Of a stretch of DNA of 64,000 bases, positions 23,614 to 29,026 are shown in pieces (positions within the stretch are counted from its first letter, which is position 1; every line of letters starts with the position of its first letter). The notes beneath the pieces are model-generated. The model was not told the DNA's origin. It worked only from the letters and a program-made list of their open reading frames with translations, and did not search any database. Where the stretch lies: contig JAADGS010000027.1 in assembly GCA_013152275.1 (NCBI GenBank), positions 1 through 64,000 on the forward strand, read 5' to 3'. The translations under genes and the position numbers were made by a program. Origin of the DNA: Actinomycetota bacterium (lineage in GTDB: Bacteria; Actinomycetota; Acidimicrobiia; Spongiisociales; UBA4744).

Positions 23614-24558
23614 TCAGCAGAACGTGTCTGGTGGGAGACTTGGTTGACGTCGGATGTGTTCGTTCTCGGGCGAGAACGCAAACTCCCAATACGCCGCCTG
23701 GGCTCTGGTAGCAGGCCGGTCGGTATCGCGGGCCATGAAGAGCGTCGTTGTGAGGTCCATGTCTTCGATCTGGATGGGAACGACCGTCCCGGCCTTCGTG
23801 GCCTCGCAGGCAACGGACATCGAGACGAACGCAACTCCGATCTTTTCCTGTACCGCCCCGCAGATGGCTTCCGAGTTCCCGAGCACCATCACCTTCTCGA
23901 GATCGTCGATGGTCATATCGTGCCAGGAGAGCCCTTCGATCACCGCTCCGCGGGTTCCCGACTGGGACTCTCGAAGGATGAACTGACCTGCGAGTAGCTC
24001 CTTGGGTTTGAGAGGACGTTCGAGTGTCGCCCAGGGATGATCCGGCGGGACGATCAACACGATCCGATCGGTCAGGAACGGCCGGTATTCGATGCCTTTG
24101 TACGGTTCTCGGAGGCTCGTCAGTGCGAGCTGAACGTCACCTTCGCGCAGTTTCTCCAGTGCCATGTGGCGGCCGGTCACGTCACAGATGAGGCCCACTC
24201 TCGGGAAGCGCTTGTGAAAGCCGGCCATGAGTTTCGGAATGACGTACTTTCCGGCAGCCGTGCTGCACCCGAGCTTGAGCACTCCGACGATTTCTCCCTG
24301 CAACGAGGCCATCGCCTCCTCCAGGTGGATGGTGCGGTCGATGACGTCGCGGGCCATCGGGATGAGTACCCGGCCCGGGTCCGTCAGGGTGACCTGTCTG
24401 CCTGTGCGGGTGAACAGGGGGACTTTGAGTTTCTCTTCCAAAGACCGGATCTGCATCGAGATTGCAGGCTGTGAGATGCTGAGCCTTCTGGCAGCCTCGG
24501 AGAAGTTTTCGGTCTCGGCCGCGGCGAGGAAGATCTGGAGTTCTCTCGGGTTGAGCAT
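23614..24558 (-). CDS. LysR family transcriptional regulator (CysL-like binding domain)
   Basis: LQIFLAAAETENFSEAARRLSISQPAISMQIRSLEE HTH; FILRESQSGTR. Confidence 0.93.
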   Translation of the reverse strand: MLNPRELQIFLAAAETENFSEAARRLSISQPAISMQIRSLEEKLKVPLFTRTGRQVTLTDPGRVLIPMARDVIDRTIHLEEAMASLQGEIVGVLKLGCSTAAGKYVIPKLMAGFHKRFPRVGLICDVTGRHMALEKLREGDVQLALTSLREPYKGIEYRPFLTDRIVLIVPPDHPWATLERPLKPKELLAGQFILRESQSGTRGAVIEGLSWHDMTIDDLEKVMVLGNSEAICGAVQEKIGVAFVSMSVACEATKAGTVVPIQIEDMDLTTTLFMARDTDRPATRAQAAYWEFAFSPENEHIRRQPSLPPDTFC

Positions 24559-24722
24559 AACCAAACTCTATCAGAAGCGAAGGGGAGAGCGCCACTTGAC
24601 TTCTTGCCAACGGGCTGTGGTTGATAAGGCGTTGTATGTGGTGCCGGCTTTGCTCGATAAGTGGTTCGTGATAAACTGTGGGTGTTCGTTCGGGAATCTC
24701 GAGCGGACCGTACAGTGAACGT

Positions 24723-24903
24723 GGCACCCTCGGCTACCTCCCTCCCGGCTGGGGGTGCTTCGCGTTGCCCTCAAGATCCAGACCGGATCGACCGATACCT
24801 GGTGGTGAGAGTGTCCTCGATGCGCCAACAGCAAACGGAGTACCCCCTTCCTCCAACTCACCGAGGACAACGGAGGCCCCCCGAGTTCGGGGGGCCTCCG
24901 CAT
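24723..24903 (+). ncRNA. Candidate small RNA with CU-rich loops, divergent from LysR
   Basis: TACAGT -10 at 24711; hairpin 24724-24758 with loop ACCTCCCTCCC; second C-rich loop at 24842-24855; strong terminal hairpin. Confidence 0.45.
24871..24900 (+). terminator. Strong hairpin upstream of surE
   Basis: CGGAGGCCCCCCGA-GT-TCGGGGGGCCTCCG perfect inverted repeat. Confidence 0.65.
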
Positions 24904-24924
24904 GCCGAGTACTCTGGCCCTCTC

Positions 24925-25725
24925 GTGGGGTATCTTCTGTTGACCAATGATGATGGCGCCGACTCGCCGGCCTTGCTGCCGTTTGCTCATGCGCTGCAAG
25001 AGATCGCAGAGGTCAAGGTGGTCGTTCCCGATCGCGAGCGCAGCTGGATCGGCAAGGCGATCACCAGGTTCGGGGAAATCCGGGTGCAGCGAACGGTTCT
25101 CGAAGGTGTCGAAGTGGTGGTGGCAGACGGGTTTCCTGCCGACTGCACCCAGCTTGGTGTGCATTCGTTGTTCGGGGCCCGGCCGGACATGGTCGTATCC
25201 GGTATCAACATCGGCTTGAACGACAGCCTGGCGTTCTTCCTGTCCAGCGGCACGGCCGGCGCGGCGGCCGAAGGATGGATTGCCGGTATCCCGGCATTCG
25301 CCTTCTCCACCGGGGTGACGAGTGACCATCGGTCATGGGCAAAACGCGTATGGGCGGGTGAGGACGCCGAGTTGTGGCCTCGCGCCGCCCAGATCAGTGT
25401 CGGCGTCGTAGGCGATGCCATGCGTAACGGCTACCCGAAAGGCGTCGATCTGCTCAATGTGAACTTCGGGATCGACGCGACCGTGCACTCATCCCGATTG
25501 ATCACGGATCTTGCCAAACTCGGTTATGACAGCATCTTCCGAGAACGAGAACCGGGCGTGTTCGTTCACGACTTCTCCACCGGCCTCCGGTTGCGTGGCG
25601 ACCTTTCGGGTACCGATGTGGAAGCGGTGGCGCGAGGCTTCGTGTCGATCACTCCGGTCCGCCTGGCGCACGCAGCCGAGATCAGCGATGAGGATCGACG
25701 TGTGTTGGAGCGGCACGACGGCTGA
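24925..25725 (+). CDS. surE: 5'/3'-nucleotidase SurE
   Basis: LLTNDDG, VVVPDRERSW, DGFPADC, VVSGINIG, SGTAGAA, LLNVN, VSITPV; start GTG 24925 (the ORF-track extension upstream is unlikely to be coding). Confidence 0.9.
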   Translation: MGYLLLTNDDGADSPALLPFAHALQEIAEVKVVVPDRERSWIGKAITRFGEIRVQRTVLEGVEVVVADGFPADCTQLGVHSLFGARPDMVVSGINIGLNDSLAFFLSSGTAGAAAEGWIAGIPAFAFSTGVTSDHRSWAKRVWAGEDAELWPRAAQISVGVVGDAMRNGYPKGVDLLNVNFGIDATVHSSRLITDLAKLGYDSIFREREPGVFVHDFSTGLRLRGDLSGTDVEAVARGFVSITPVRLAHAAEISDEDRRVLERHDG

Positions 25726-26286: not shown

Positions 26287-26364
26287 GGCTGCCTCCTGGG
26301 GGGATGGTAGATGAGAGACGTCCCCGGGGCACCAGGACCGACGACAACGGTGCGCCATGTCCTG

Positions 26365-26468
26365 CGAACCCAGGGCTCAGGGGGGTCGCCACGACGCCTA
26401 CGAACCCAGGGCTCAGGGGGGTCGCCACGACGCCTACGAGCCCAGGGCTCAGGGGGGTCCACGGCGCC
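26365..26468 (+). repeat. 36-bp head-to-tail tandem repeat (about 2.8 copies)
   Basis: CGAACCCAGGGCTCAGGGGGGTCGCCACGACGCCTA at 26365 and 26401, degenerate copy at 26437; no spacers. Confidence 0.92.
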
Positions 26469-26503
26469 CCTCTGTTCATACGACCGCCGAGCCACCGGTT
26501 TTC

Positions 26504-28955: not shown

Positions 28956-29026
28956 AGCGGGTGAGGGGAATCGAACCCCCGTTGCAAGCTTGGGAAGCTC
29001 GTGTTCTACCACTGAACTACACCCGC
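28956..29026 (-). tRNA. tRNA-Gly (anticodon CCC)
   Basis: GCGGGTG TA GTTCAGTGGTAGAAC A CGAGC TTCCCAA GCTTG CAAC GGGGG TTCGATT CCCCT CACCCGC T cloverleaf; CCA not encoded in register. Confidence 0.96.

Follow-up and report, generated by a model that had tools for sequence, protein, structure and literature searches.

Two kinds of described system lie closest to the locus examined here, C-rich small RNAs and the WhiG/sigma28-type regulons. The actinobacterial 6C RNA pairs with mRNAs without a chaperone, as described in PMC6486639, and the cuckoo RNAs of Alphaproteobacteria consist, in the account of PMC4615179, of two to four adjacent hairpins that each bear the CCUCCUCCC motif. The sigma factor WhiG is controlled by the RsiG/c-di-GMP switch described in PMC8325347, and the search rule for its promoters given in PMC13595943 combines a -35 of XT(C/A)AX, a 16-nt spacer and a -10 of GCCGA with one mismatch tolerated. 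The published WhiG regulon predictions presented in that source scored protein genes only (PMC13595943), and in the expression data of PMC2602773, 6C (scr3558) was unchanged by a whiG mutation.

We analyzed a 64,000-nt stretch of an actinobacterial contig (hereafter the window) and compared it with related genomes, focusing on the gap that separates a minus-strand lysR gene from a plus-strand surE gene (Table 1). The initial annotation had interpreted this gap as one LysR-controlled RNA of about 180 nt, transcribed from a TACAGT -10 at 24711. That interpretation is not supported: a WhiG-type promoter of its own precedes the 3' half, which spans at least nine families, mostly without an adjoining lysR or surE. 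Rather than one small RNA gene, the gap likely contains two, arranged as structured C-rich elements in tandem. Our main reading, which we hold at a probability of about 0.6 from sequence comparison, is that the downstream element (unit B) would be a WhiG-made pairing sRNA and the upstream element (unit A) a separate RNA from a LysR-controlled promoter. A LysR-linked C-rich RNA is plausible as unit A, and the 180-nt RNA as a whole is unsupported. Both prominent hairpins reported earlier are present, the first with loop ACCTCCCTCCC; the TACAGT letters are also present, although they are kept in only 1 of 10 homologues, which leaves a promoter role unsupported. The internal WhiG-type promoter and the outer stem of unit B had been missed.

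Table 1. Features of the lysR-surE gap and related loci; positions are those of the window
Feature	Position	Strand	Remarks
LysR-family regulator gene	23614..24558	-	likely leaderless
lysR extended -10	24565..24573	-	6 nt upstream of lysR ATG; read from sequence
Two ATAA(G) motifs	24624..24661	+	candidate LysR half-sites for unit A promoter
Predicted unit A promoter	24669..24677	+	extended -10 TGnTAnnnT in 10/10 homologues; +1 near 24684
Unit A, predicted ~80-nt RNA	24684..24765	+	variable 5' hairpin 24684-24708; 12-bp hairpin 24724-24758
WhiG/sigma28-type promoter	24770..24797	+	CTCAA(G)-16 nt-ACCGATA; +1 predicted 24805-24807
Unit B, predicted ~98-nt small RNA	24805..24902	+	structured, C-rich, non-coding
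Unit B outer stem	24812-24819/24862-24869	+	encloses small inner hairpin
Unit B hairpin GGAG-UACCCCCUUC-CUCC	24837-24854	+	
Unit B terminator-like hairpin	24871..24900	+	13 bp; this copy has no U run, many homologues have U-richer tails
surE -10 TACTCT	24910..24915	+	predicted leaderless promoter
surE nucleotidase	24925..25725	+	bystander
Metallo-beta-lactamase-fold loci			L143, L099, L140, L142, L184, L209, L166, L141; opposite strand, ~940 nt upstream of unit B

Folding of the stretch 24715-24910 is more stable than that of its shuffled counterparts (z -3.4; 0 of 200), the gap region is conserved in 9 of 19 genomes of the family, and the element is single-copy in the genome. An Rfam scan of the gap region matched no family, and the sole Rfam match in the window is a tRNA gene on the minus strand (28956-29026). 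Elsewhere in the window, short GC-rich tandem palindromic repeats follow dcd (~26330-26470), and similar REP-like units follow other genes in the genome. The gap is non-coding, as originally proposed: no reading frame is conserved among homologues, which also speaks against a small ORF or an extension of SurE within it. A cis-acting surE leader or riboswitch, or an N-terminal extension of SurE, is extremely improbable and is largely refuted by the gene neighborhoods. The surE frame is indeed open across the element in the window, but just 4 of 10 homologues keep it open, and their registers differ; surE has its own -10, as had been noted, with TAnnnT lying 8-9 nt ahead of the start codon in 10 of 10 homologues, and the usual gene downstream of the element is a convergent dnaB.

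Unit B is very probably a real WhiG-made RNA. The published WhiG rule identifies CTCAA-16-ACCGA at 24770-24795, and 53 of 55 unit B members score 9 or 10 of 10. When a model of both C-rich hairpins was applied to genus g3, it matched the 3' part only in all nine genomes, where the LysR was not found; these loci retain CTCAAG-N16-CCGAT upstream of the core while the sequence of the spacer varies freely. Conservation of the boxes alongside drift of the spacer is how a promoter behaves. The boxes are 94-100% conserved compared with at most 54% for spacer columns, in a membership chosen in part by a model that included the promoter. We therefore left the promoter out of the query in a core-only metagenome scan, which returned 55 matches, two of them too close to a contig end. 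Fifty-one of the other 53 carried at least 9 of the 10 promoter letters at the right distance (48 perfect, 3 with one mismatch), against 22 of 5000 random genome positions taken as the control. Within this genome, CT[CT]AAG-Nk-CCGAT[AG] occurs at 14 sites for k = 15-16 and at 0-4 sites for each of 16 other spacings. A start codon follows the WhiG-type motif by 8-9 nt at 8 of 12 sites fetched, and this distance places the predicted start of unit B (Table 1).

WhiG (above the model cut-off) and RsiG (two motif hits) are both encoded in this genome, and WhiG is found in 53 of 56 genomes with a unit B member, the three misses being genomes that are 63-90% complete. In family f10, WhiG was found in 0 of 18 genomes (a tally that includes one unpublished genome, G034) and no unit B member was found; four weak unit B matches in that family are chance.

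The WhiG-type promoter of unit B and the 13 other such sites in this genome mark a largely leaderless predicted regulon. This regulon includes the gene for a CheA-like kinase, which follows a strict site, and genes for pilin-type proteins, a subtilase, YkuD and M23 cell-wall enzymes, an ADP-ribosylglycohydrolase and a PAS kinase; looser sites lie upstream of a pilin-type gene, two pilus ATPases, a DUF4388 gene and response regulators. No flagellin was found in this genome. A second candidate combining a WhiG-type site with C-rich sequence, on contig C17, abuts a glmS ribozyme and was dropped; the ribozyme itself (G000:C17:9552-9702) sits between glmM and glmS.

This Acidimicrobiia order was sampled with 151 genomes, of which 56, from nine families, carry unit B behind its WhiG-type promoter. 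These members derive from a second model, which matched 66 of the 151 genomes at E 0.01 and yielded 54 members with both promoter and core upon inspection, and from a third model, which added two. One additional member, in G339, lies outside the 151-genome sample. Weak matches were judged to be chance on inspection in two sets (3 in one, 14 of 15 in another), and those in G179, G374, G282 and G543 were likewise inspected and dropped. Outside the order, unit B was found neither in a class sample nor in a phylum sample of 151 genomes each, the one model match in each being chance, and a pattern search of 401 class genomes also found none. Many WhiG-bearing genomes have no detected unit B, which may reflect divergence. 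At two loci (L437 in G025 and L366 in G068), a unit B-like structure occurs without the WhiG promoter and has possibly been rewired to another sigma factor. The genes around unit B vary: a convergent dnaB downstream is common, with eamA or dcd upstream, and unit B sits between lysR and surE only in a single family (10 genomes). Because most copies lack lysR or surE next to them, unit B is independent of either gene as a neighbor.

Unit B folds well overall (z -5.1), and the body of the window's copy, minus the terminator, is no more stable than its shuffles (z -0.3). The minus strand folds well too, so the strand call rests on the promoter and the terminator. Among 87 distinct unit B sequences (median length 116 nt), 86 have their core enclosed by an outer stem of 5 bp or more, and the terminator-like hairpin was detected in 64 by a finder that misses some perfect palindromes, including the one in the window. 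No conserved reading frame was found in the unit B homologues. A set of 32 sequences from a single clade has two-sided change at 11 outer-stem pairs, and 0 of 500 shuffles score as high, a count that is inflated by relatedness, as related genomes are not independent. The pairs were set by hand on a structure taken from one member and are biased in its favor; RNAalifold, given MAFFT alignments, did not recover the outer stem. The inner GGAG/CUCC register is preferred in 63 of 84 homologues, with both sides of this stem changed in two members (G069 and G056), whereas the second stem described originally (24838-24859) exists as a minor register in 10 of the 84. The favored register leaves CCCCCUU exposed and sequesters most of CCUCC, for which the unpaired probability is ~0.2.

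This fold bears on what unit B does. Unit B could be made by WhiG and yet bind a protein instead of mRNAs, its three-way junction serving as the contact for, say, a C-rich-RNA-binding protein or a component of RNA polymerase. The ACGGAG/CUCC stem and the junction are conserved as strongly as the loop, CCUCC is mostly sequestered, and a conserved mRNA target was not found; nevertheless, CsrA was not found in this genome, which also removes a CsrA sponge from consideration, and unit B has several single-stranded CUCC-type motifs like those of the pairing RNAs described in PMC4615179 and PMC6486639. We regard protein binding as improbable and consider that unit B probably acts by mRNA pairing, most likely repressing translation, by analogy with 6C and with sigma28-dependent RNAs. 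Under the pairing model, RsiG would release WhiG as c-di-GMP falls, and WhiG would then transcribe unit B between its predicted ends. The exposed CCCCCUU loop could seed on G-rich ribosome-binding regions, after which the 4-5 bp GGAG/CUCC stem would open to lengthen the duplex, and translation would be repressed without a chaperone, as for 6C. The leading target candidates are the leadered WhiG-regulon mRNAs for pili and signaling, which would create a feedback loop.

Duplex ranking, complement sites and orthologue comparison revealed no conserved unit B target. The ranking of duplexes over 2713 predicted genes of one genome gave a smooth distribution without discrimination, and perfect-complement sites in 40 genomes (50 loci fetched) share no gene family and have unrelated genes downstream. 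A site in an Flp pilin gene, GGAAGGGG, was rejected since it occurs in 2 of 38 readable orthologues (of 50), from two genomes only. This genome contains a Tad pilus operon (L299; G000:C90:116116-122418) that encodes a 55-aa Flp-type pilin unrecognised by Pfam and matched in 81 of 151 genomes of the order. By eye, the dnaB leader in the window has no long match to unit B. In family f6 and related contigs, a metallo-beta-lactamase-fold gene follows a WhiG promoter of its own and has AAGGGG as its ribosome-binding site, a combination observed at 7 of 8 related loci. It was discarded as a general target, since it lacks a leader in genus g3 and this genome was not found to contain it, and stands as a candidate lineage-limited target. 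In a post hoc comparison, GAAGG lies near the start of 5 of the 12 genes that have a leader and follow a WhiG-like promoter, versus 222 of 2681 others (p 0.002); the pairing energies of the two sets do not differ (p 0.48), and the motif also occurs in genomes where unit B was not found.

Unit A is narrower in distribution, and the odds slightly favor its being a LysR-linked small RNA. It occurs solely beside this LysR (10 genomes), and within the family it and the LysR orthologue share the identical 9 of 19 genomes; outside the family, a search for the unit A pattern gave matches at control level. Its 9-nt loop, CUCCCUCCC, is invariant in 10 of 10 homologues. The plus strand folds better than its shuffles and the minus strand does not (z -2.7 and +1.9, respectively), and the predicted start precedes an extra hairpin. 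Of the 12 stem pairs, six show one-sided variation and one two-sided, a total not above shuffles. Unit A displays the co-occurrence and conserved upstream motifs of a LysR-divergent transcript, and its promoter may be controlled by LysR.

The regulator itself is nearest to the NCBIfam model LysR_Sec_metab, under the cut-off (209 of 250 bits). The initial annotation placed a LysR box at an ATA-N9-TAT dyad (24557-24571), the letters of which are present here and at 14 of 16 LysR loci. These letters coincide with the lysR start codon and the minus-strand extended -10, so that the leaderless promoter layout explains the dyad; a LysR binding site could still exist alongside it. The GATAA motifs reported at 24623, 24656 and 24670 are present. 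Two ATAA motifs closer to the divergent promoter appear to be better activation-site candidates than the ATA-N9-TAT box: both are found in 9 of 10 LysR-linked loci, 33 nt apart in 8, and ATAAG-N28-ATAA has a single occurrence in this genome.

In two other families, LysR orthologues (L030, L034 and L035) lie opposite a multiheme cytochrome c gene or a TusA-DsrE operon. These neighbors suggest a sulfur-compound signal, pointing to a sulfur-compound-sensing LysR subfamily near NF040786. The same neighbors fit an account in which unit A is no functional RNA and instead a conserved terminator or promoter remnant that persisted after this LysR lost its original sulfur target, and the absence of significant covariation in unit A also fits. 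We consider a remnant rather unlikely, because the 9-nt loop is invariant and terminator-like hairpins here mostly have loops of 3-5 nt (125 of 169), and because the extended -10 is retained in 10 of 10 homologues.

The hairpin closing unit A has only a weak U tail, and units A and B are adjacent in all 10 genomes that have A. Both observations would be expected if one RNA of ~220 nt extended from the LysR-linked promoter through the final hairpin, with unit B as a shorter WhiG isoform, in which case two signals would feed one RNA. However, unit B is solitary in the other 46 genomes, and in G124 a comparable stem, ending in an identical tail, is placed after a stop codon, as a terminator would be. 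Read-through is therefore quite unlikely in our estimation, and we retain two separate RNAs.

If unit B is WhiG-made as predicted, a regulatory RNA joins a pilus-linked control circuit so far described through proteins alone: a structured RNA whose consensus WhiG promoter has persisted in at least nine families would place RNA directly among the members of an actinobacterial sigma28 regulon whose output in these bacteria appears to be pili, neither flagella nor spores. Unit B also supplies a new RNA family for modeling, and CTCAAG-N15/16-CCGAT a sharp promoter signature for mapping the WhiG regulon in uncultured Acidimicrobiia. A more elaborate and doubtful scenario would make unit B the post-transcriptional arm of the c-di-GMP/RsiG/WhiG switch, repressing GAAGG-type mRNAs including those for a pilus ATPase and a pilin, with leaderless WhiG transcripts escaping; a family-specific sulfur-sensing LysR would then have added a second anti-Shine-Dalgarno RNA upstream, tying sulfur status to the same output.

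Among known RNAs, 6C (Rfam RF01066; B11 of Mycobacterium) resembles unit B in being actinobacterial, ~90-100 nt long and equipped with C-rich loops. However, the two stem-loops with six-C loops that define 6C are absent from the folds here, and unit B forms a three-way junction that includes a single short C-rich hairpin. RF01066 had no match in the genome or the gap region, in a search whose control passed the cut-off in 0 of 14 genomes, limiting its sensitivity. The cuckoo/CcsR RNAs share an anti-Shine-Dalgarno-like loop, that of unit A being CCUCCUCCC with one inserted C. Where cuckoo RNAs have several hairpins, a single hairpin with CCUCCCUCCC or CUCCCUCCC is found here; unit A has one hairpin, unit B another motif, the phylum is different and there is no Rfam match. 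Rfam searches of the window and 13 loci (12 with unit B) for cuckoo/CcsR, RsaE or any other family gave tRNAs and sub-threshold chance matches only, reducing the likeness to cuckoo, 6C and RsaE drawn originally to analogy. One locus, L067 in G139, has two adjacent hairpins with loops CUCCCUCCC and CUCCUCCC, below any Rfam threshold, and is possibly a 6C- or cuckoo-like RNA.

With regard to transcription, the sigma28-dependent sRNAs of E. coli covered in PMC10578931 and CjNC1 and CjNC4 of Campylobacter (PMC4626219) are likewise small RNAs made by a sigma28-family factor, and tuning of surface-appendage genes is a predicted common theme. As presented in those sources, they act on flagellar genes, whereas the predicted regulon here comprises pili and signaling and resembles the type IV pilus regulon predicted for Rubrobacter WhiG in PMC8325347; their sequence relation to unit B was compared through Rfam. 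Neither the literature covered nor Rfam yielded a description of unit B, which we predict to be a new C-rich small-RNA family in the WhiG regulon. Streptomyces scr1906, the sole whiG-dependent sRNA encountered in that literature, shares the dependence on whiG predicted for unit B, but PMC2602773 describes a promoter without a WhiG consensus and an effect judged to be indirect, whereas unit B has a direct consensus promoter.
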